DNA from: Shigella phage TB004
Sequence record: MW822011
Reading direction: 5' to 3' (one strand)
Length of the DNA stretch: 64,000 nt
Part shown: positions 2,188-61,699 of the stretch, in pieces
Position numbering within the stretch: the first letter of the stretch is position 1
Layout of the letters: every line of letters starts with the position of its first letter
Notes under the pieces: generated by a model
The model's database searches: none
What the model saw: only the letters and a program-made list of their open reading frames with translations
Told to the model about the DNA's origin: nothing
Translations under genes and position numbers: made by a program

Positions 2188-2811
2188 ATGATTATTAATC
2201 TTGCAGATGTTGAACAATTATCTATAAAAGCTGAAAGTGTTGATTTTCAATATGATATGTATAAAAAGGTCTGTGAAAAATTTACTGACTTTGAACAGTC
2301 AGTTCTTTGGCAATGTATGGAAGCCAAAAAGAATGAAGCTCTTCATCGGCAGTTGAATAAAATCATTAAAAAGCATTTAACTGAATCACCTTATCAGCTA
2401 TATCGTGGTATATCAAAATCGACAAAAGAACTCATTAAAGATTTACAAGTCGGAGAAGTGTTTTCAACAAACAGAGTAGATTCATTTACTACTAGTTTGC
2501 ATACAGCGTGTTCTTTTTCTTATGCTGAATATTTCACTGACACAATACTTCGCTTAAAAACTGATAAAGCTTTTAATTACTCTGACCATATCAGCGATAT
2601 TATACTTTCTTCTCCTAATACTGAGTTTAAGTATACATATGAAGATACTGATGGATTAGATTCAGAACGTACTGATAACTTAATGATGATTGTGCGTGAA
2701 CAAGAATGGATGATTCCAATTGGAAAGTATAAAATAACTTCTATTTCAAAAGAAAAATTACACGATTCGTTTGGAACATTTAAAGTGTATGATATTGAGG
2801 TAGTTGAATGA
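2188..2811 (+). CDS. modB: ADP-ribosyltransferase ModB (207 aa)
   Basis: R-S-E ART motifs (YRG ... FTTS ... REQEWMIP); length and position match T4 modB. Confidence 0.8.
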   Translation: MIINLADVEQLSIKAESVDFQYDMYKKVCEKFTDFEQSVLWQCMEAKKNEALHRQLNKIIKKHLTESPYQLYRGISKSTKELIKDLQVGEVFSTNRVDSFTTSLHTACSFSYAEYFTDTILRLKTDKAFNYSDHISDIILSSPNTEFKYTYEDTDGLDSERTDNLMMIVREQEWMIPIGKYKITSISKEKLHDSFGTFKVYDIEVVE

Positions 2812-3410
2812 AATATTCAGCAATGCAATTAAAAGATTTTAAAATCAAATCAATGGATGCATCGGTGCGTGCTTCTATTCGTGAAGAATTACTTTCTGAA
2901 GGATTTAATTTATCTGAAATTGAACTTTTAATTCATTGTATTACTAATAAGCCAGACGATCATTCTTGGTTAAATGAAATAATCAAATCTCGTTTGGTTC
3001 CAAACGATAAACCTCTTTGGAGAGGTGTTCCAGTTGAGACTAAGCAGGTGTTAAATCAAGGAATTGATATTATTACATTTGATAAAGTAGTATCAGCTTC
3101 ATATGATAAAAATATAGCTCTGCATTTTGCTTCTGGATTAGAATACAACACACAAGTTATTTTTGAATTCAAAGCTCCTATGGTATTTAATTTCCAGGAG
3201 TATGCTATAAAAGCTCTACGTTGTAAAGAATATAGTCCGACTTTTAAGTTTCCGGATAGTCATCGCTATCGTAATATGGAATTAGTTTCAGATGAACAAG
3301 AAGTAATGATACCAGCTGGAAGTGTATTTAGAATTGCGGATAGATATGAATATAAAAAGTATTCAACATACACTATCTATACTCTTGATTTTGAAGGATT
3401 TAATCTATAA
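2808..3410 (+). CDS. modA: ADP-ribosyltransferase ModA (200 aa)
   Basis: paralog of the upstream ORF (WRG ... SAS ... DEQEVMIP); length matches T4 modA; ATGA overlap. Confidence 0.8.
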   Translation: MKYSAMQLKDFKIKSMDASVRASIREELLSEGFNLSEIELLIHCITNKPDDHSWLNEIIKSRLVPNDKPLWRGVPVETKQVLNQGIDIITFDKVVSASYDKNIALHFASGLEYNTQVIFEFKAPMVFNFQEYAIKALRCKEYSPTFKFPDSHRYRNMELVSDEQEVMIPAGSVFRIADRYEYKKYSTYTIYTLDFEGFNL

Positions 3411-4586: not shown

Positions 4587-5902
4587 CATTTGATGATTTG
4601 ACCGAAGGCCAGAAAAATGCCTTTAACATCGTTATGAGGGCTATTAAAGAAAAGAAACATCATGTAACTATTAATGGACCTGCTGGTACTGGTAAAACTA
4701 CTCTTACTAAGTTCATCATTGAAGCCTTAATATCTACGGGCGAAACTGGCATTATTTTAGCAGCTCCTACTCATGCAGCTAAAAAGATTCTTTCAAAACT
4801 GTCAGGGAAAGAAGCGAGTACTATTCACAGTATTCTTAAAATTAACCCAGTAACATACGAAGAAAACGTTCTTTTTGAACAAAAAGAAGTACCGGATTTA
4901 GCTAAATGCAGAGTATTAATCTGCGACGAAGTGTCAATGTATGATAGAAAGCTATTTAAAATTCTGCTTTCAACTATCCCGCCGTGGTGTACTATAATTG
5001 GAATAGGCGATAATAAGCAAATTAGACCTGTTGACCCAGGAGAAAATACTGCTTATATCAGTCCATTCTTTACGCATAAAGATTTTTATCAGTGTGAACT
5101 CACTGAAGTTAAACGCAGTAATGCTCCTATTATTGATGTAGCTACTGATGTTCGTAGCGGTAAGTGGATTTATAATAAAATTGTTGACGGACATGGAGTA
5201 CGTGGATTTACTGGTGATACTGCTTTACGCGATTTTATGGTAAATTATTTTTCAATCGTAAAATCACTAGATGATTTGTTTGAAAATCGTGTAATGGCAT
5301 TTACGAATAAATCTGTTGATAAGTTAAATAGCATTATTCGTAAAAAGATTTTTGAAACTGATAAAGATTTTATTGTCGGTGAAATTATTGTAATGCAGGA
5401 ACCATTAATTAAAACATATAAAATTGATGGAAAGCCTGTGTCAGAAATTATTTTTAATAACGGACAATTAGTTCGTATCATAGAAGCAGAGTATACATCA
5501 ACATTTGTTAAAGCTCGTGGTGTTTCTGGAGAATATCTAATTCGTCATTGGGATTTAACAGTAGAAACTTACGGCGATGATGAATATTATCGTGAAAAGA
5601 TTAAAATAATTTCATCTGATGAAGAGCTGTATAAGTTTAACTTATTTTTAGGTAAAACGGCAGAAACTTATAAAAATTGGAATAAAGGTGGAAAAGCCCC
5701 GTGGAGTGATTTTTGGGATGCTAAATCACAGTTTAGTAAAGTGAAAGCACTTCCTGCATCAACATTCCATAAAGCTCAGGGCATGTCTGTAGATCGTGCT
5801 TTCATTTATACACCTTGTATTCATTATGCAGATGCTGAATTAGCTCAGCAGCTTCTTTATGTTGGTGTCACTCGTGGTCGTTATGATGTATTTTATGTAT
5901 GA
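4583..5902 (+). CDS. dda: Dda DNA helicase (439 aa)
   Basis: Walker A GPAGTGKT, SF1 helicase motifs; length equals T4 Dda. Confidence 0.95.
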   Translation: MTFDDLTEGQKNAFNIVMRAIKEKKHHVTINGPAGTGKTTLTKFIIEALISTGETGIILAAPTHAAKKILSKLSGKEASTIHSILKINPVTYEENVLFEQKEVPDLAKCRVLICDEVSMYDRKLFKILLSTIPPWCTIIGIGDNKQIRPVDPGENTAYISPFFTHKDFYQCELTEVKRSNAPIIDVATDVRSGKWIYNKIVDGHGVRGFTGDTALRDFMVNYFSIVKSLDDLFENRVMAFTNKSVDKLNSIIRKKIFETDKDFIVGEIIVMQEPLIKTYKIDGKPVSEIIFNNGQLVRIIEAEYTSTFVKARGVSGEYLIRHWDLTVETYGDDEYYREKIKIISSDEELYKFNLFLGKTAETYKNWNKGGKAPWSDFWDAKSQFSKVKALPASTFHKAQGMSVDRAFIYTPCIHYADAELAQQLLYVGVTRGRYDVFYV

Positions 5903-52702: not shown

Positions 52703-53011
52703 ATGAAATTGACAACTGAGCAGAAAGTAGCAATTCGTGAAATTTTGAAAACTAAATTGTCCATGGGTATTTCAAACGTGGTTTTTGAAAAGTCTGATGG
52801 TACTATTCGTACTATGAAAGGTACTCGTGATGCAGACTTTATGCCAACCATGCAAACCGGTAAATTGACTGAATCTACTCGGAAAGAATCTACTGATATG
52901 ATTCCAGTATTTGATGTTGAGCTTGGTGCATGGCGAGGTTTTTCTATTGACAAATTGATTTCTGTTAATGGTATGAAAGTTGAGCATTTACTCCAATTTA
53001 TTGGTAAATAA
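52703..53011 (+). CDS. hypothetical protein (102 aa)
   Basis: ORF track. Confidence 0.5.
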   Translation: MKLTTEQKVAIREILKTKLSMGISNVVFEKSDGTIRTMKGTRDADFMPTMQTGKLTESTRKESTDMIPVFDVELGAWRGFSIDKLISVNGMKVEHLLQFIGK

Positions 53012-53067
53012 ATGCTTTAAGAATTATTTGTTATTATTAATTCATCTGTTAACAAAAAGGAAAAACG

Positions 53068-53403
53068 ATGTCTGAAGTACAACAGCTACCAATTCGTGCT
53101 GTCGGTGAATATGTTATTTTAGTTTCTGAACCTGCACAAGCCGGTGATGAAGAAGTTACAGAATCAGGACTTATTATCGGTAAACGTGTCCAAGGTGAAG
53201 TTCCTGAACTGTGTGTAGTTCACTCTGTTGGTCCTGATGTTCCTGAAGGTTTCTGTGAAGTTGGTGATTTGACTTCTCTTCCAGTTGGTCAAATTCGAAA
53301 CGTTCCGCATCCTTTTGTAGCTCTGGGTCTTAAGCAGCCAAAAGAAATTAAACAAAAATTCGTTACCTGTCACTATAAAGCTATTCCGTGTCTTTATAAG
53401 TGA
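53068..53403 (+). CDS. 31: co-chaperonin gp31 (GroES-like), 111 aa
   Basis: length and position next to rIII as in T4. Confidence 0.85.
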
Positions 53404-53550
53404 TATAAATAATAATATGAATTGGGTGTCGGAATAATAAGTTAACCGAACGATTCTACGTGGTAGTCTACAACTGAGAGATCTGTCGAAAGAAGATGAA
53501 ATTCAGAAGAACGTGACTACCGAGTTTTAATCTCTAACGAGAATTTTTAA

Positions 53551-53799
53551 ATGATTAAACAATTACAACACGCTCTTGAACTGCAACGAAACGCATGGAA
53601 TAATGGTCACGAAAACTATGGCGCATCTATTGATGTTGAAGCCGAAGCTCTTGAAATCCTGCGTTATTTCAAACATCTGAATCCTGCTCAAACTGCATTA
53701 GCTGCTGAGCTTCAGGAAAAAGATGAACTTAAGTATGCTAAGCCTCTGGCTTCTGCTGCACGAAAAGCAGTTCGTCACTTTGTGGTAACACTGAAATAA
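53551..53799 (+). CDS. rIII: rIII lysis-inhibition accessory protein (82 aa)
   Basis: length and position as in T4. Confidence 0.8.
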   Translation: MIKQLQHALELQRNAWNNGHENYGASIDVEAEALEILRYFKHLNPAQTALAAELQEKDELKYAKPLASAARKAVRHFVVTLK

Positions 53800-54197
53800 T
53801 TTATTGGAGATTCACTGCCTTAGTGTGAGCTAAAATCGAGGAGCCATCGAACTGTCTGATTAATGATTTGCGAATCATTATAGTTTTAAGACCCCGGCAG
53901 TTTTATGGTGTACCTCTTGAATGTTATTCTTATAGCGGCAAGTGCATGCTACCCCGAGGTGATGGCCAATCGGGAGTACGCCTCAAGGCCTATATATCCA
54001 TCAGTATATATCTTATCCTCGAGAAATCGAACCCGGAACCTTTAAGCTAACGGTGTGCAACAGATAAGAGCTATAAGGTATGATGACGGGTTTATGGTTA
54101 TCCTGGTCGTTAAATATTCAAAAACCTATGTTCCCCTTGAGGGCTTGCGCAGGCAATGCCAATAAGTCCTGCATTTTCATTTAAAAGAGAATTTATA

Positions 54198-54374
54198 ATG
54201 GCAAAACAAGCTAAAGCAAAGAAAGCAGTTGAAAAGAAAGTTGGTGATTCTAAACGCGCTGGTTACAAGCGTGGGTCGAACTCTCGTATCAATCAAACTG
54301 TTGAGAAGATCATGCGCCGAGCACGTGCGGTTCTTCGAGATGATGCTTCTCGTTTTGGTAAGCAGAAAGCATAA
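54198..54374 (+). CDS. small highly basic protein (58 aa)
   Basis: MAKQAKAKKAVEKKVGDSKRAGYKRGSNSRINQTVEKIMRRARAVLRDD; followed by a strong terminator. Confidence 0.45.
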   Translation: MAKQAKAKKAVEKKVGDSKRAGYKRGSNSRINQTVEKIMRRARAVLRDDASRFGKQKA

Positions 54375-54378
54375 GTTG

Positions 54379-54404
54379 AGGACTCCTTCGGGAGTCCTTT
54401 TTTA
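54379..54404 (+). terminator. rho-independent terminator (UUCG hairpin plus T-run)
   Basis: aggactccttcgggagtccttttttatttt. Confidence 0.7.
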
Positions 54405-54426
54405 TTTTCCAAAGATTGCATAAAGT

Positions 54427-54460
54427 TGTTTACAGTATAGTTCATTTGTGATAGTATTAT
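54427..54460 (+). promoter_or_regulatory. T4-type early promoter
   Basis: taaagttgtttac ... tgtgatagtattat. Confidence 0.45.
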
Positions 54461-54484
54461 CTTACACAAACAAAGGAGAATAAA

Positions 54485-54817
54485 ATGAAAACGATTAATC
54501 TGAACGCTACAGTTAAAACTAAATGCTTCAATGGTAAATATGATGAAACTATGTGGTTCTTAATGGCAGTTGAAGGTGATATTATTGAAGTAGAAACAAC
54601 AGAAGGTATGGGAACAGATTTCACCTTTACAATTCAAGTTCATAATTTCTTTACTGGTTGGATTTATGAATTGAATACAGTAATCGTTGGAAAAATTGAA
54701 CAAAATGAATTAGGTGAATGGTATTATGTTACAGCTCGCCAACGTGCAGAACGCTTAATTGAGAAGATGAAAAAAGTTGGTAAACTTGACATGCAGCACT
54801 GGAAAGTAGTAAAATAA
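54485..54817 (+). CDS. hypothetical protein (110 aa)
   Basis: ORF track; ggagaataaa SD. Confidence 0.5.
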   Translation: MKTINLNATVKTKCFNGKYDETMWFLMAVEGDIIEVETTEGMGTDFTFTIQVHNFFTGWIYELNTVIVGKIEQNELGEWYYVTARQRAERLIEKMKKVGKLDMQHWKVVK

Positions 54818-54819
54818 TT

Positions 54820-54849
54820 GTTTACTTTGGTACAGGATATGATATTATA
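54820..54849 (+). promoter_or_regulatory. T4-type early promoter
   Basis: aattgtttac ... gatatgatattat. Confidence 0.4.
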
Positions 54850-54884
54850 TACCTATACCGCAATTAAACATCTTGGAGAATAAA

Positions 54885-55250
54885 ATGAACTACATCAACT
54901 TTGAACGTAAATATGTTTCTAACGGTATTGCAGGTTCTATTGATACTATCTGCCTTTGGAAACATCAAAATGGATCAGTATGCGAAATTGAACAGTATAT
55001 GACTCCTAACTACGTTTATATGCGATTTGAAAATGGCATCACGGTTTCAATCACGAAAGAAGGTTCTTCTTTTAAAATCGCATTAGATGATGATTTTCGT
55101 CAACGTGATTTAGGGACTCATCCTTGCTGGAATGGCGTCAATCGTAAGCTTCTGGTTAAAACTTGGATTCGTCATATTCTGAGTAACAGAGCTAAACCTG
55201 AGCATCTTGAAGCGATCTTTGATGTAGTTCTTAACGAATTTGATATTTAA
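54885..55250 (+). CDS. hypothetical protein (121 aa)
   Basis: ORF track frame 54873..55250 (TTG); ATG at 54885 after ggagaataaa. Confidence 0.5.
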   Translation: MNYINFERKYVSNGIAGSIDTICLWKHQNGSVCEIEQYMTPNYVYMRFENGITVSITKEGSSFKIALDDDFRQRDLGTHPCWNGVNRKLLVKTWIRHILSNRAKPEHLEAIFDVVLNEFDI

Positions 55251-55257
55251 AATAAAA

Positions 55258-55276
55258 TAGGGGCTTCGGCCCCTTA
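55258..55276 (+). terminator. UUCG hairpin (terminator-like)
   Basis: aggggcttcggcccctt. Confidence 0.4.
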
Positions 55277-55290
55277 CTGAGGAAAATATT

Positions 55291-55578
55291 ATGTTTATGA
55301 CTACTTATTTTGATACCCGTAAAAACTTCTGTGAAGTAGTTTTCTCTAAGGCGCCTAAAGACCTTCCTGCTCATTTGCAGCCTACAAGTGAATCGATTAA
55401 AAACTACGTTAATGTAGTCTGCCCTTTAGAGTTTCGTACTGTAAATGGGCGTGATACTCTAGCTATCGCTAAACTCAATCGTGAAATTGACATTGACCCT
55501 TCAATTGCGCGTGAAATTAACATTTCTGACATTGGCGGCGGTAATGTTAAATCGCACGGTTTTCAGATGAGGTTCTAA
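55291..55578 (+). CDS. hypothetical protein (95 aa)
   Basis: ORF track; gaggaaaa SD. Confidence 0.5.
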   Translation: MFMTTYFDTRKNFCEVVFSKAPKDLPAHLQPTSESIKNYVNVVCPLEFRTVNGRDTLAIAKLNREIDIDPSIAREINISDIGGGNVKSHGFQMRF

Positions 55579-55775
55579 TGAAATTCTTTTTAGATCAAAC
55601 TGTTGAATTAAAGGGAGTTGGTATACCTGGATTAATTTCTAAGGTTCTACCTCCATTTAAATGGAGTGGTATTCAAATAAAAGAGGCTTATATTGTTTCC
55701 TGGGTAGATGGAAATGAAGACCTTCGTATGGGTGATGAATTATCTCCTATCTATGGATTAAAGGAATTAATATGA
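55578..55775 (+). CDS. hypothetical protein (65 aa)
   Basis: ORF track. Confidence 0.4.
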   Translation: MKFFLDQTVELKGVGIPGLISKVLPPFKWSGIQIKEAYIVSWVDGNEDLRMGDELSPIYGLKELI

Positions 55776-55978
55776 ATATAATTAATAAGATTTTTGGAAT
55801 TCAGTACATTAAGGTTACATATAAAGTAACGTATAAAGGTCCGTATACCGATGAATATGAAGAGCCACAAGTTCAGTCTATTATATTAGAAAAGGACCCT
55901 AACTGGCCAGTTGAATTTCGTCTTCCTTGCTATGGTCATTGGGCTGATGTTGAAATTATAAGTATTGAAAATGTCTGA
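55772..55978 (+). CDS. hypothetical protein (68 aa)
   Basis: ORF track. Confidence 0.4.
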   Translation: MNIINKIFGIQYIKVTYKVTYKGPYTDEYEEPQVQSIILEKDPNWPVEFRLPCYGHWADVEIISIENV

Positions 55979-56429
55979 GTTAGAGATTAGAAGCAATTTT
56001 AAATGGCCATCATGTGCATTAAGCAATTTCGCCCAATGGCCTTTTGTTATGGATGGCATTCAATTTGGAGGTCTCGAAGGATTCCTACAAGGATGTAAGG
56101 TGAAAAATGCTGAACATCAAAGACGTATATTTGGGTTGTCTGGATTGGCTGCACAGCAAGCTGGAAGGTCTTATGCAAGAGCTCAGGACCGTGGAACTCT
56201 CTTCTGGTTAGGAGTTCCATTTTCAAGATACTCTGAAGCGTGGAAAGAATTATACACAAATGCATATTTTGAAGCAGCGATCCAAAACAGGGGCTTTCGT
56301 GATGCATTACAAGCCTCGAAAGGAAAAGTTTTGAAGCACAGCATGGCTAGTGGTCTAACAAAAGATGATACAATACTAACCGAAGCTGAATTTATTGACG
56401 TGTTAAACCTATTAAGAGACTCTCTATGA
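55971..56429 (+). CDS. NADAR / YbiA-like (DUF1768) domain protein (152 aa)
   Basis: N-terminal F ... LSNF ... PF ... G ... F ... E pattern typical of the YbiA/NADAR family. Confidence 0.55.
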   Translation: MSELEIRSNFKWPSCALSNFAQWPFVMDGIQFGGLEGFLQGCKVKNAEHQRRIFGLSGLAAQQAGRSYARAQDRGTLFWLGVPFSRYSEAWKELYTNAYFEAAIQNRGFRDALQASKGKVLKHSMASGLTKDDTILTEAEFIDVLNLLRDSL

Positions 56430-57289
56430 AGCCAACTATTTTGACTGATATTGATGGAGTATGTTTAAGCTGGCAATCAGGCCTTCCTTATTTTGCTCAG
56501 AAATATAATCTTCCATTAGAACATATTTTAAAAATGATCCAAGATGAGAAATTTATTTCTCCAGGTAAGCTCTTTAATTGTGATGAAGAACTTGGTGTCA
56601 AGTTAATTGAAAAATACAATCGTTCGGATTTTATTCGTTACTTGTCTCCATATAAAGATGCTCTGCGTGTAATTAACAAATTAAAAGAAGATTATAATTT
56701 TGTAGCTGTTACAGCACTGGGTGATTCTATTGACGCTCTGCTGAATCGTCAATTTAATTTGAATGCTCTTTTTCCTGGTGCCTTCTCAGAAGTACTGATG
56801 TGTGGTCATGATTCTTCAAAAGAAGAGTTGTTCAAAAAGGCAAAAGAGAAATATAACGTAATTTGTTATATTGACGATCTCGCTCACCACTGCGATCATG
56901 CGAGTGAAATATTAAATGTTCCTGTTTATTGGATGGCTCGAGGGGAGCGTGACAGTATTCCAAAAACTGCACAGCGAGTTTATACATGGAATGATGTAGA
57001 AAATAAGCTTTTTTCACCAAAGGAAAATAAAGAAAGTTTTGATAGTGAAAAAGCTATAAAAGATGTAATTGAGAAGATGGTTAAAAACGATTCTTTTCGT
57101 TGGAACACTACCTGGAGAACTCCTGGATTTAATCCGTATAACCCATATTATACACATCCATATAATCCATATTATACACACCCGTATCATATGAATCCAT
57201 TCCATACGTGGAGTTATATTAAGCCCGGTGATGCAGGGTATTTTAATAGATTTACTAGTGGTGATAATATTTTCCAAGGAGCATTCTAA
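56426..57289 (+). CDS. HAD-superfamily phosphatase-like protein with Pro/Tyr-rich repeat tail (287 aa)
   Basis: N-terminal DIDGV (HAD motif I); C-terminal NPYNPYYTHPYNPYYTHPYHMNPFH. Confidence 0.55.
   Translation: MKPTILTDIDGVCLSWQSGLPYFAQKYNLPLEHILKMIQDEKFISPGKLFNCDEELGVKLIEKYNRSDFIRYLSPYKDALRVINKLKEDYNFVAVTALGDSIDALLNRQFNLNALFPGAFSEVLMCGHDSSKEELFKKAKEKYNVICYIDDLAHHCDHASEILNVPVYWMARGERDSIPKTAQRVYTWNDVENKLFSPKENKESFDSEKAIKDVIEKMVKNDSFRWNTTWRTPGFNPYNPYYTHPYNPYYTHPYHMNPFHTWSYIKPGDAGYFNRFTSGDNIFQGAF
57141..57188 (+). repeat. 24-bp direct tandem repeat (2 copies) inside the HAD-like gene
   Basis: ccatattatacaca(t/c)cc(a/g)tat(a/c)at twice; coordinates approximate. Confidence 0.6.
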
Positions 57290-57558
57290 TGTTTGTCGTT
57301 CACACTATTTATGAAAATGAAGGTAATACTACACGTGATTACGGTCACGTAAATCAATTTTTTAGATGCAATCCAGAATTCCGAGCTCAAAAAGACGAAC
57401 GAATTTTTAAAAAATGTGTAGAGCAAGGTTTCATTTACGTCAAGCATTGGATGCAAGGAAATAAAGTTAGAACTACATATCATAAGTCTTTGCCTGAGCT
57501 TAATGATGAATTGATTTATAATAGAGCTGTAAACCAAACCTTGAAGGATGAGCAATGA
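57289..57558 (+). CDS. hypothetical protein (89 aa)
   Basis: ORF track. Confidence 0.45.
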   Translation: MFVVHTIYENEGNTTRDYGHVNQFFRCNPEFRAQKDERIFKKCVEQGFIYVKHWMQGNKVRTTYHKSLPELNDELIYNRAVNQTLKDEQ

Positions 57559-59018
57559 TTCTTAAAATTCTGAATGAAATAGCATCTATTGGATCAACTA
57601 AGCAGAAGCAAGCAATTCTTGAAAAGAATAAAGATAATGAATTGCTTAAACGGGTATATCGTCTGACTTATTCTCGTGGGTTACAGTATTATATCAAGAA
57701 ATGGCCTAAACCTGGTATTGCTACCCAGAGTTTTGGAATGCTGACTATTACCGATATGCTTGACTTCATTGAATTCACGTTAGCTACTCGGAAATTGACT
57801 GGAAATGCAGCAATTGAGGAATTAACTGGATATATCACTGATGGTAAAAAGGATGATGTTGAAGTTTTACGTCGAGTTATGATGCGAGACCTTGAATGCG
57901 GTGCTTCAGTATCTATTGCAAACAAAGTTTGGCCAGGTTTAATTCCTGAACAACCTCAAATGCTGGCAAGTTCTTATGATGAAAAAGGCATTAGTAAGAA
58001 TATCAAGTTTCCAGCTTTTGCACAGTTAAAAGCAGATGGAGCCCGGTGTTTTGCTGAAGTTCGAGGCGATGAATTAGATGATGTTCGTCTTTTATCACGA
58101 GCTGGTAATGAATATCTAGGATTAGATCTTCTTAAGGAAGAATTAATCAAAATGACTGCTGAAGCCCGCCAGATTCATCCAGAAGGTGTGTTAATTGATG
58201 GCGAATTGGTATACCATGAGCAAGTTGAAAAAGAGCCAGAAGGCCTAGATTTTCTTTTTGATGCTTATCCTGAAATTAGTAAAGCTAAAGAATTCGCCGA
58301 AGTAGCGGAATCTCGTACTACTTCTAATGGAATCGCCAATAAATCCTTAAAAGGAACCATTTCTGAAAAAGAAGCTCAATGCATGAAGTTTCAGGTCTGG
58401 GATTATGTCCCGTTGGTAGAAATATACGGTCTTCCGGCGTTTCGTTTAAAATATGATGTACGTTTTTCTAAACTAGAACAAATGACATCAGGATATGATA
58501 AAGTAATTTTAATTGAAAACCAGGTAGTAAATAACCTAGATGAAGCTAAGGTAATTTATAAAAAGTATATTGACCAAGGTCTTGAAGGTATTATTCTCAA
58601 AAATATCGATGGATTATGGGAAAATGCTCGTTCAAAAAATCTTTATAAATTTAAAGAAGTAATTGATGTTGATTTAAAAATTGTAGGAATTTATCCTCAC
58701 CGTAAAGACCCTACTAAAGCAGGTGGATTTATTCTTGAATCAGAGTGTGGAAAAATTAAAGTAAATGCTGGTTCAGGCTTAAAAGATAAAGCCGGTGTAA
58801 AATCACATGAACTTGACCGTACTCGCATTATGGAAAACCAAAATTATTATATTGGAAAAATTCTAGAGTGCGAATGCAACGGTTGGTTAAAATCTGATGG
58901 CCGCACTGATTACGTTAAATTATTTCTTCCAATTGCGATTCGTTTACGTGAAGATAAAACTAAAGCTAATACATTCGAGGATGTATTTGGTGATTTTCAT
59001 GAGGTAACTGGTCTATGA
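57555..59018 (+). CDS. 30: ATP-dependent DNA ligase gp30 (487 aa)
   Basis: MILKILNEIASIGSTKQKQAILEKNKDNELLKRVYRLTYSRGLQYY; adenylation motif KADG (AQLKADGARC); length equals T4 ligase. Confidence 0.95.
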   Translation: MILKILNEIASIGSTKQKQAILEKNKDNELLKRVYRLTYSRGLQYYIKKWPKPGIATQSFGMLTITDMLDFIEFTLATRKLTGNAAIEELTGYITDGKKDDVEVLRRVMMRDLECGASVSIANKVWPGLIPEQPQMLASSYDEKGISKNIKFPAFAQLKADGARCFAEVRGDELDDVRLLSRAGNEYLGLDLLKEELIKMTAEARQIHPEGVLIDGELVYHEQVEKEPEGLDFLFDAYPEISKAKEFAEVAESRTTSNGIANKSLKGTISEKEAQCMKFQVWDYVPLVEIYGLPAFRLKYDVRFSKLEQMTSGYDKVILIENQVVNNLDEAKVIYKKYIDQGLEGIILKNIDGLWENARSKNLYKFKEVIDVDLKIVGIYPHRKDPTKAGGFILESECGKIKVNAGSGLKDKAGVKSHELDRTRIMENQNYYIGKILECECNGWLKSDGRTDYVKLFLPIAIRLREDKTKANTFEDVFGDFHEVTGL

Positions 59019-59203
59019 AAGCTTACTTAGAAACAATTGTCGTGGCTCAAAAAGAAGGTGGAGATGTTTCTACTTCTGTATCACAAATCGTTCTTGAATT
59101 TGTAGATGCATATGCTTATAATAAATTCACAGAAACATTTGATGCCTATGAAAAAGGTCCAAAGTTTGAAATATATCGTACTCTCTTACCATTAGATTAT
59201 TAA
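59015..59203 (+). CDS. hypothetical protein (62 aa)
   Basis: ORF track; ATGA overlap with ligase. Confidence 0.45.
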   Translation: MKAYLETIVVAQKEGGDVSTSVSQIVLEFVDAYAYNKFTETFDAYEKGPKFEIYRTLLPLDY

Positions 59204-59222
59204 AGGCCTTCGGGCCTTTAAT
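59202..59222 (+). terminator. rho-independent terminator
   Basis: aaaggccttcgggcctttaatttt. Confidence 0.6.
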
Positions 59223-59224
59223 TT

Positions 59225-59232
59225 TATAAATA
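59225..59232 (+). promoter_or_regulatory. late promoter TATAAATA upstream of alt
   Basis: ttttataaatagaat about 30 nt upstream of alt ATG. Confidence 0.5.
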
Positions 59233-59261
59233 GAATAAGAATAAACACTAGAGAGGATATG

Positions 59262-61310
59262 ATGGAACTCATTACAGAATTATTTGACGAAGATACTACT
59301 CTTCCGATTACAAACTTAAATCCAAAGAAGAAAATACCGCAAATTTTTTCAGTTCATGTTGATGACGCAATTGAACAACCAGGCTTTCGTTTATGTACCT
59401 ATACATCTGGAGGTGATACTAACCGTGATTTAAAGATGGGCGATAAAATGATGCATATTGTTCCTTTTACATTAACTGCTAAAGGTTCAATTGCTAAATT
59501 AAAAGGTCTCGGTCCAAGCCCAATTAATTACATCAATTCAGTTTTTACTGTTGCGATGCAGACGATGCGGCAGTATAAAATTGATGCCTGCATGCTTCGT
59601 ATTCTTAAGTCTAAAACTGCTGGTCAAGCTCGACAAATTCAAGTTATTGCTGATAGACTTATCCGTAGTCGTTCAGGTGGCAGATACGTCCTTCTTAAGG
59701 AACTCTGGGATTATGATAAAAAGTATGCATATATTCTTATACATCGCAAAAATGTATCACTAGAAGACATTCCAGGAGTTCCGGAAATTAGTACCGAGCT
59801 CTTTACTAAAGTTGAATCGAAAGTCGGCGATGTTTATATCAATAAAGATACTGGAGCTCAAGTAACTAAAAATGAGGCAATTGCAGCATCTATCGCACAA
59901 GAAAATGATAAACGTTCTGACCAAGCTGTTATTGTTAAAGTTAAAATTTCCCGTAGAGCAATTGCGCAAAGTCAATCATTAGAATCTTCTAGATTTGAAA
60001 CACCAATGTTTCAAAAATTTGAGGCTTCAGCAGCAGAATTAAATAAACCCGCCGACGCGCCTTTAATTTCTGATGCTAACGAATTAACTGTTATTTCTAC
60101 TTCAGGATTTGCATTAGAGAATGCTCTTAATAGTGTTACAGCTGGAATGGCATTCAGAGAAGCTTCTATAATTCCTGAAGATAAAGAATCTGACGTTAAT
60201 GCAGAAATAAAAAATAAAGCTTTAGAAAAATTACGAAAAGAATCTATTACTTCAATAAAAACTTTAGAAACTATTGCTTCTATCGTCGATGATACTTTAG
60301 AAAAATATAAAGGTGCTTGGTTTGAAAGAAATATTAACAGACATTCGCATTTAAACCAAGATGCTGCAAATGAGTTAGTACAAAATTCTTGGAATGCAAT
60401 AAAAACAAAGATTATTCGAAGAGAATTACGTGGATATGCTCTTACCGCTGGATGGTCATTACATCCTATAGTCGAAAATAAAGATTCATCTAAATACACA
60501 CCAGCGCAAAAACGCGGAATTCGTGAATATGTAGGTTCAGGATATGTAGACATGAATAATGCTCTTTTGGGATTATATAATCCAGATGAGCGTACAAGTA
60601 TTTTAACAGCACCTGAAATAGAACAAGCCATTGATAATTTAGATTCAGCCTTTAAAAATGGTGAACGATTACCAAAAGGTATTACTTTGTATCGTTCACA
60701 ACGAATGTTACCTTCAATATATGAAGCACTGGTAAAAAATCGAGTTTTTTATTTTAGAAATTTTGTATCAACATCATTATATCCAAACATTTTTGGTACT
60801 TGGATGACTGATTCAGCTGTGGGTGTTTTACCAGATGAAAAGCGTCTAAGCATTTCTGTCGATAAAAATGATGAAGGGCTTGTTAATTCTAGCGATAATT
60901 TAGTTGGAATTGGATGGGTTATTACTGGAGCTGATAAAGTCAATGTTGTTTTACCCGGTGGAAGTTTAGCACCTTCAAATGAAATGGAAGTCATTTTGCC
61001 ACGTGGATTAATGGTCAAAGTCAATAAAATAACTGATGCATCTTACAACGATGGAACAGTTAGAACTAACAACAAGCTTATTCAAGCTGAAGTTATGACC
61101 ACAGAAGAACTCACCGAATCGGTAATTTATGACGGTGACCGTTTAATGGAAACTGGTGAATTGGTTACAATGACAGGTGATATAGAAGATAGAGTTGACT
61201 TTGCATCGTTTGTTTCATCAAATGTTAAACAGAAAGCAGAATCATCTCTTGGAATTATTGCGTCTTGCATAGATATTGCAAACATGCCTTACAAGTTCGT
61301 TCAAGGATAA
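59262..61310 (+). CDS. alt: Alt, packaged ADP-ribosyltransferase (682 aa)
   Basis: MELITELFDEDTTLPITNLNPKKKIPQIF; length equals T4 Alt; ART core in the C-terminal half. Confidence 0.9.
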   Translation: MELITELFDEDTTLPITNLNPKKKIPQIFSVHVDDAIEQPGFRLCTYTSGGDTNRDLKMGDKMMHIVPFTLTAKGSIAKLKGLGPSPINYINSVFTVAMQTMRQYKIDACMLRILKSKTAGQARQIQVIADRLIRSRSGGRYVLLKELWDYDKKYAYILIHRKNVSLEDIPGVPEISTELFTKVESKVGDVYINKDTGAQVTKNEAIAASIAQENDKRSDQAVIVKVKISRRAIAQSQSLESSRFETPMFQKFEASAAELNKPADAPLISDANELTVISTSGFALENALNSVTAGMAFREASIIPEDKESDVNAEIKNKALEKLRKESITSIKTLETIASIVDDTLEKYKGAWFERNINRHSHLNQDAANELVQNSWNAIKTKIIRRELRGYALTAGWSLHPIVENKDSSKYTPAQKRGIREYVGSGYVDMNNALLGLYNPDERTSILTAPEIEQAIDNLDSAFKNGERLPKGITLYRSQRMLPSIYEALVKNRVFYFRNFVSTSLYPNIFGTWMTDSAVGVLPDEKRLSISVDKNDEGLVNSSDNLVGIGWVITGADKVNVVLPGGSLAPSNEMEVILPRGLMVKVNKITDASYNDGTVRTNNKLIQAEVMTTEELTESVIYDGDRLMETGELVTMTGDIEDRVDFASFVSSNVKQKAESSLGIIASCIDIANMPYKFVQG

Positions 61311-61313
61311 ATC

Positions 61314-61699
61314 ATGGAACTTATTACAGAATTATTTGACGGCGCTTCGGCGCCGGTTGTTAACTTAAATCCTAAGCATAAAATACCACAAATTTTTGCT
61401 ATTCAAGCCGGCGAAGAAAGCGTGCTTCCTGGATTTAGATTTTGTACATACACCTCTGGCGGTGATACGAATAAAACGTTAAGCCGGGCGATAAAATGAT
61501 GCATATCGTAATGATAGGTGTTAATGAGAAACTATCATTAGTTAAGCTTAAAAACTTGGGTGGAAATCCAATTGGTGTCATTAATGCTGTTTTTGATACT
61601 GCTCTTCAAACAATGAAACAGTATAAAATCGACGCATGCCTATTACGCGTACTAAAAAGTTCAAAATGTAGTTTACAAGTCCCTCGTGTTGTGTTATAG
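61314..61699 (+). pseudogene. frameshifted tandem duplicate of the alt 5' region (Alt N-terminal fragment in two ORFs)
   Basis: MELITELFDGASAPVVNLNPKHKIPQIF ... FCTYTSGGDTN then frameshift, then MMHIV ... TALQTMKQYKIDACLLRVLKS; parallels Alt residues 1-120. Confidence 0.6.

Follow-up and report, generated by a model that had tools for sequence, protein, structure and literature searches.

Shigella phage TB004 carries an ortholog of T4 gene 30.3 (adfN), a probable guanine-specific DNA ADP-ribosylglycohydrolase countering DarTG1

We analyzed a 64,000-nucleotide stretch of Shigella phage TB004 (MW822011), hereafter the window, and describe in it a gene that is in all likelihood the Tequatrovirus adfN (T4 gene 30.3), whose product would act as a guanine-specific DNA ADP-ribosylglycohydrolase countering DarTG1. 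We place the probability of this reading at roughly 93%. The gene, its orthology, its fold, the conserved catalytic residues, the intact C-terminus and the purifying selection acting on it are drawn from the window sequence itself. That this allele has the enzymatic activity and confers the anti-DarTG1 phenotype, we infer by orthology (96% identity) from experiments performed with T4.

A preliminary description of the locus had pointed to a NADAR/YbiA-like protein and a candidate counter-defence factor, and had missed both the identity with T4 30.3 and the prior publication of its function. The function of adfN is already known, its enzymology having been published in 2023-2024 and its counter-defence role in 2025, and the window adds nothing new for biology. 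Its use lies elsewhere. Nearly all phage database records that we found still call gp30.3 homologs 'hypothetical protein', an annotation that the functional label corrects, and an intact, presumably active adfN predicts growth of the phage on E. coli carrying DarTG1.

The adfN locus and its orthology with T4 30.3

The gene and its immediate boundaries are as follows.

55971..56429, + strand: adfN, T4 gene 30.3 ortholog, encoding a 152-aa phage-type NADAR, the putative DNA ADP-ribosylglycohydrolase
55971..55978, + strand: overlap of the 30.4 stop with the adfN start (ATGTCTGA), from the sequence and the ORF table
56382..56426, + strand: C-terminal alpha-helix, residues 138-152 (helix 138-151 in the model)
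56426..56429, + strand: overlap of the adfN stop with the 30.2 start (ATGA), from the sequence and the ORF table
56426-57289, + strand: gene 30.2, whose ATG overlaps the adfN stop

The reading frame opens with an ATG at 55971 and closes with a TGA at 56427-56429, giving a product of 152 aa. The mechanical ORF list begins the frame two codons upstream, at a TTG, and the ATG agrees with the start annotated in T4. Pfam PF08010 (Phage_30_3, 'Bacteriophage protein GP30.3') matches the product across 138 of 138 model positions with E=3.2e-68 and 228.3 bits, for a cut-off (gathering score) of 36 bits, and PHROG 652 (phrog_652) matches it at E=1.6e-50. The dN/dS ratio is 0.09 in the comparison with T4 and 0.06 in the comparison with Mosigvirus MM02, values which indicate that adfN is subject to strong purifying selection. 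Taken together, the PF08010 match, the identity with T4 gp30.3 and the dN/dS values identify adfN as a real gene rather than a chance ORF. The overlap of its start with the 30.4 stop suggests translational coupling of the two genes.

The surroundings of the gene are those of a T-even phage. Using T4 proteins in tblastn searches, we recovered the T4 gene order 30.7-30.6-30.5-30.4-30.3-30.2-30.1-30 (DNA ligase)-alt.1-alt in the window, with all genes on the + strand; adfN is flanked by 30.4 and 30.2 and precedes the DNA ligase gene, as it does in T-even phages. The 3-kb stretch around adfN shares 96-97% identity with many Tequatrovirus genomes, that is, T4-like phages of Escherichia and Shigella. 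A scan of positions 53000-59500 for promoters and terminators gave no more sites than expected from shuffled sequence (23 vs 22.4 and 4 vs 3.1, respectively).

At the protein level, the adfN product and T4 gp30.3 (NP_049816) are identical at 146 of 152 residues (96%) with no indels. The six substitutions (R11K, V47A, Q49H, P89E, K107R and I125M) are conservative or of surface type, and none of them falls in an invariant column of the family alignment A1 introduced below. The two proteins have in common their length of 152 aa, their neighbours, the catalytic residues E36, K43 and H123 and an intact C-terminal helix. They differ, besides the six substitutions, in a nucleotide identity of just 92%, which is due to synonymous changes, and in the overlapping ORF 30.3' of the T4 gene, which is interrupted in the window. 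On this sequence comparison, the window gene is the same gene as T4 30.3 in a sister phage.

The last 27 residues of the adfN product are identical to those of T4, leaving the C-terminal helix stretch intact. In phage RB69, which is sensitive to DarTG1, a frameshift in the adfN allele removes the 15 residues of this helix stretch, and the activity of AdfN-T4 is reduced when the protein is C-terminally truncated (PMC11825919).

The adfN nucleotide sequence stands somewhat apart from its flanks. It shares 90-95% identity with nearly all database alleles and exceeds 95% in only 5 of 648 records, while in the flanking 3 kb the identity with the best genomes reaches 97%. Most of the differences are synonymous, and adfN may sit in a small mosaic patch.

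NADAR fold and catalytic residues

The coding sequence contains the following conserved features.

56019..56030, + strand: L17-S18-N19-F20, the N-terminal NADAR motif, invariant in 59/59 family members and aligned with FSNF of YbiA
56076..56078, + strand: E36 codon GAA, the predicted catalytic glutamate, invariant in A1
56097..56099, + strand: K43 codon AAG, the predicted ADP-ribose phosphate-binding lysine, invariant in A1
56337..56339, + strand: H123 codon CAC, the hallmark histidine of phage (gp30.3-type) NADARs, invariant in A1

The N-terminal YbiA/NADAR pattern claimed in the preliminary description is present in the adfN product: F10, L17-S18-N19-F20, P24-F25, G29, F32 and E36. In HMMER alignments, this stretch lies on the FSNF...WP..DG....E......K of E. 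coli YbiA. The assignment to a NADAR/YbiA-like protein stood at the level of the family profile and of the fold, and was not significant for the window protein taken alone. The Pfam NADAR model PF08719 did not match the window protein at E<=1, and a phmmer search of the window protein against all PDB sequences returned YbiA alone, at a non-significant E=0.63; that alignment puts LSNF, WPF, DG, E36 and K43 on matching YbiA residues. Because the resemblance is not significant for the single sequence, we relied on the family profile, on transitive Pfam matches and on comparison of folds.

We collected 97 homologs, of which the 59 full-length ones, 36-86% identical to the window protein, form the alignment A1. 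Searched against PDB sequences, the A1 profile finds YbiA (2b3w) at E=0.0018; the NADAR structures 8bau and 8bat were not found by the profile in this search and were recovered by structure only. In the HMM check proposed earlier, which gave no hit for the window protein at E<=1, 22 of the 59 A1 members match PF08719 at E<=0.1, the best at E=1.5e-7 with 32.3 bits, slightly below the cut-off of 35.1. The AlphaFold2 model computed from A1 reaches a mean pLDDT of 93.4 and a pTM of 0.88, and a Foldseek search with this model places YbiA 2b3w, 8bau and 8bat in the first three ranks. In the model, small beta-hairpins flank a core of alpha-helices, and the protein can be superimposed on the solved NADARs; its identity with YbiA is only about 20%. 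The NADAR fold predicted for the window protein is thereby solid. The same fold was already reported for the T4 protein by Johannesman et al. (PMC11825919), and the placement of the gp30.3 family in the NADAR superfamily is likewise already known from earlier bioinformatic work cited in the literature. By its PF08010 match, its His123, its full-length C-terminus and its synteny, the window protein is a member of the phage NADAR/gp30.3/AdfN family, and its fold and catalytic pair place it in the NADAR superfamily.

Among the columns without variation in A1 are L17, S18, N19, F20, E36, G37, F38, Q40, K43 and H123. E36 and K43 are spaced by seven residues (E-x6-K) as in other NADARs, and align in HMMER with the E......K pair of YbiA. 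The same spacing is found in E43/K50 of the Phytophthora NADAR and E88/K95 of the E. coli C7 NADAR, residues that contact ADP-ribose and are required for guanine de-ADP-ribosylation (PMC11543638); K43 corresponds to K50 of the former and K95 of the latter. In AdfN-T4, the E36A substitution impairs DarTG1 counter-defence and abolishes in vitro activity, and K43A impairs activity (PMC11825919). In the AlphaFold2 model, H123 comes immediately after the final beta-strand, which spans residues 120-122. Phage NADARs have His at the position where YbiA-type proteins have Glu and DarG1-type proteins Asp (PMC11543638, PMC11125620, PMC12945103), and it is from this literature that we take the equivalence of H123 with the Glu/Asp position.

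These differences separate the window protein from the DarG1 and YbiA NADARs. The DarG1 antitoxin NADARs (BC4488-type) of G. lovleyi (8bat) and E. coli C7 use an Asp of the last strand for catalysis and have an N-terminal helix and beta-sheet extension, whereas the window protein has His123 and consists of the core only (152 aa vs 219 for 8bat). The extension of DarG1 forms a DNA channel and is lacking in the phage NADAR (PMC12945103). DarG1 NADARs are moreover encoded next to their toxin, while no DarT1 toxin gene lies beside adfN, whose neighbours are 30.4 and 30.2; nor can T4 gp30.3 substitute for DarG1 in uninfected cells. AdfN is not a strict DarG1 antitoxin and yet, by analogy with the T4 protein, would catalyze the same reaction, hence the term 'orphan antitoxin'. 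E. coli YbiA (2b3w) and its family have Glu where the window protein has His123, and what YbiA has been tied to is the control of riboflavin damage and an operon under LexA control rather than phage counter-defence (PMC11125620). AdfN-Bas32 and AdfN-Bas60, from T5-like and Vequintavirinae phages, are phage-encoded NADARs that also neutralize DarTG1 and not DarTG2; they were independently acquired, group with NADARs from archaea and from other bacteria and, unlike AdfN-T4, work without T-even infection (PMC11825919).

Function inferred from T4 and the competing readings

On DNA in vitro, T4 gp30.3 hydrolyses guanine-ADPr and leaves thymine-ADPr in place (Cihlova et al. 2024, PMC11125620), and a 2026 paper reports that the T4 enzyme removes G-ADPr and not C-ADPr (PMC12945103). 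The reversal of guanine ADP-ribosylation in DNA, put forward for the window protein with some hesitation, had thus been published for its 96%-identical T4 counterpart (PMC11125620, PMC12945103) and by analogy would extend to it. Johannesman et al. (2025, PMC11825919) traced the ability of T2 and T4 to resist DarTG1 to gene 30.3, which they renamed adfN, and found the gene necessary and sufficient for this resistance: T2 and T4 with adfN deleted no longer plaque on DarTG1 hosts, and ectopic adfN-T4 rescues RB69 on DarTG1. In the same work, purified AdfN-T4 stripped ADP-ribose off DarT1-modified DNA, showed no two-hybrid interaction with DarT1 and gave no protection against DarTG2 (PMC11825919). 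In a transposon screen, T4 insertions in 30.3 disappear on a DarTG1 host (HIDEN-SEQ, bioRxiv 10.1101/2025.11.20.689424). On E. coli K-12, T4 30.3 is dispensable, and DarTG1 sensitivity is the only phenotype reported for its loss (PMC11825919; bioRxiv 10.1101/2025.11.20.689424). The proposal of counter-defence against a DarT-type toxin finds its match in these results for T2/T4 adfN against DarTG1 (PMC11825919), and would apply to the TB004 gene by the same analogy. Considering the 96% identity, the genomic context, the intact catalytic residues and the purifying selection, the window allele almost certainly acts like that of T4.

The mechanism that we propose is accordingly that of the T4 enzyme. 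Upon infection of a DarTG1 host, DarT1 ADP-ribosylates guanine N2 in phage DNA and blocks its replication; AdfN would then hydrolyse the N-glycosidic bond of guanine-ADPr, freeing ADP-ribose and restoring guanine so that replication can continue. The target would be the modified DNA, the toxin itself not being bound. AdfN is expected to be specific to guanine adducts and inactive on the thymine adducts of DarT2 and on cytidine adducts, and would represent a minimal single-domain enzyme of the NADAR fold, of the phage (histidine) subtype.

AdfN-T4 is fully effective only in T-even infections and barely helps T5 or Bas25 (PMC11825919), and in uninfected E. coli T4 gp30.3 gives no rescue from the toxicity of DarT1 (PMC11125620). 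Given these failures, the picture of a free-standing hydrolase acting on any DNA is incomplete, and a T-even-specific factor or context appears to be needed by AdfN-T4. One reading is that T-even AdfN is not self-sufficient in vivo, depending on a T-even partner or context such as the downstream gene 30.2, whose start overlap suggests that it is translationally coupled to adfN, or that it has a second substrate produced by the phage transferases. A T-even partner or context would explain the failure of AdfN-T4 in uninfected cells, in T5 and in Bas25, and the corresponding region of RB69, in which AdfN-T4 works, also contains a 30.2 gene (PMC11825919). The adjacency of 30.3 and 30.2 is also retained in the distant Straboviridae Acinetobacter phage Tonic and Aeromonas phage PX29. 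However, no 30.2 homolog was found within 5 kb of the gp30.3 homolog in Vibrio phage K566, Rhizobium phage P10VF, Ralstonia phage RSP15 or Brevundimonas phage Kabachok, and with 30.2 lacking near these four homologs, the 30.3-30.2 link reflects Straboviridae synteny. We therefore rejected gp30.2 as an obligate partner of AdfN, the adjacency being one of synteny and not a conserved two-gene module, and regard the broader reading as improbable.

The 30.2 product itself opens with a HAD-type DxDGV motif (LTDIDGV) and weakly resembles a 5'(3')-deoxyribonucleotidase (2jao, E=0.21) and a polynucleotide kinase PHROG (E=7e-4), and so has the look of a phosphatase or nucleotidase of the HAD type. Its proline-/tyrosine-rich C-terminal repeat region is one unit longer than in T4, the addition being the 10 residues YTHPYNPYYT.

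The preliminary description had also noted that the phage encodes three ADP-ribosyltransferases, which is correct; all lie within the window.

59262-61307, + strand: alt, about 97% identical to T4
2188-2808: modB, about 97% identical to T4
2808-3407: modA, about 97% identical to T4

It had suggested on this ground that the NADAR protein might regulate the phage's own modifications. Under this reading, AdfN would mainly reverse or tune the modifications that Alt, ModA and ModB place on arginines of RNA polymerase and of translation factors by ADP-ribosylation, or the RNAylation performed by ModB. Besides the presence of all three transferase genes, with alt on the same strand 2.8 kb downstream of adfN, a 2022 survey found T4-like NADARs among early genes together with ARTs (PMC9503650). 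The taxonomic spread of Alt and gp30.3 is also largely alike, with 1222 vs 1510 phage records overall, 594 vs 599 in Escherichia and 69 vs 69 in Acinetobacter. Shared Straboviridae ancestry and synteny account for this overlap, however; since both are Straboviridae genes, the overlap does not discriminate between the readings, and we rejected Alt co-occurrence as support for self-regulation. Where the two distributions part, they part against this reading: homologs of gp30.3 in Vibrio, Rhizobium, Ralstonia and Brevundimonas phages have no Alt within 5 kb (tblastn), and Vibrio, with 55 gp30.3 records, is absent from the ten leading Alt genera. The characterized NADAR activities are all on N-glycosidic base adducts (guanine and, in some subfamilies, cytidine), and we found no report of NADAR activity on arginine adducts (PMC11125620, PMC12945103, PMC11543638), nor, in PMC11543638, any published test of a NADAR on protein arginine-ADPr. 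The reading is further weakened by genetics, T4 30.3 being dispensable on K-12 with DarTG1 sensitivity as its sole reported phenotype. Regulation of the Alt, ModA and ModB modifications thus gained no support from the dispensability of 30.3, its DarTG1-specific phenotype or the homologs that lack a nearby Alt, and we hold it to be very unlikely.

Equally slim are the chances that AdfN degrades small molecules derived from ADP-ribose, for instance nucleotides of immune signalling or toxic derivatives of ADPr, in place of DNA adducts. The case for this was a contextual argument predating the biochemistry of phage NADARs (PMC9503650, 2022), to which the binding of free ADP-ribose in the Phytophthora NADAR structure 8bau can be added. 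Against it, T4 gp30.3 has been shown to remove guanine ADPr from DNA oligonucleotides and from DarT1-modified genomic DNA, and its genetic phenotype is confined to DarTG1, a system that modifies DNA. AdfN might nevertheless have a second activity on small molecules in addition to that on DNA. That AdfN is a YbiA-type housekeeping N-glycosidase acting on riboflavin-pathway intermediates is extremely unlikely, as the family-defining Glu of the last strand is replaced by His in the window protein and in the whole gp30.3 family, identity with YbiA is only about 20%, and the published activity and phenotype concern DNA adducts.

Overlapping frame, distant homologs and disrupted alleles

A second frame inside adfN corresponds to the T4 ORF 30.3', on which Pfam DUF2883 was built.

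56107-56211, + strand: ORF 30.3' remnant, in another frame inside adfN, 34 aa vs 75 aa in T4

The stop codon that interrupts it in the window is shared with Mosigvirus MM02. Identity to T4 in the 30.3' frame is 73%, compared to 96% in the adfN frame, and its dN/dS of about 1.2 points to neutral evolution. We rejected ORF 30.3' as a functional second product on account of the internal stop, present in the window and in MM02, and of this dN/dS; judging from the sequences compared, it is probably not a gene.

Outside the Tevenvirinae, gp30.3-type NADARs with 31-39% identity occur in Vibrio phage K566 (L005), in Rhizobium phage P10VF of the Pootjesviridae (L006), in Ralstonia phage RSP15 (L007) and in the jumbo siphovirus Brevundimonas phage Kabachok (L008), the homolog being positioned at about 5001-5470 of each locus. 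Their neighbourhoods are unrelated, featuring SbcCD-like genes, a helicase, a tRNA gene cluster and an RNA ligase two genes downstream; alt, 30.2 and the ligase gene are absent from the vicinity of all four homologs. The P10VF homolog is labelled 'putative homing endonuclease' and looks mis-annotated. In Klebsiella phage Roth16 (PQ657790.1, 66950-67387), the region of the gp30.3 homolog is labelled 'anti-CBASS protein acb1', probably an annotation error or a label belonging to an adjacent feature.

Several homologs from other T4-like phages or metagenomes are disrupted. Two of them (P0014 and P0017) are frameshift hybrids of the 30.3 and 30.3' frames. Two others are in-frame deletion fusions without E36 and K43, joining the C-terminus of gp30.3 to the N-terminus of gp30.7 (P0016) or of gp30.8 (P0041). 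In all four, the disruption is either natural or introduced in the assemblies. As sequences, these alleles suggest that adfN has been lost repeatedly, and they fit an accessory gene that is dropped when unneeded.

Downstream of alt, positions 61314-61696 of the window (+ strand) hold alt.-1 and alt.-2, with about 60% identity to the first ~117 residues of Alt. They are an old partial duplication of alt that is already recorded in the T4 annotation.
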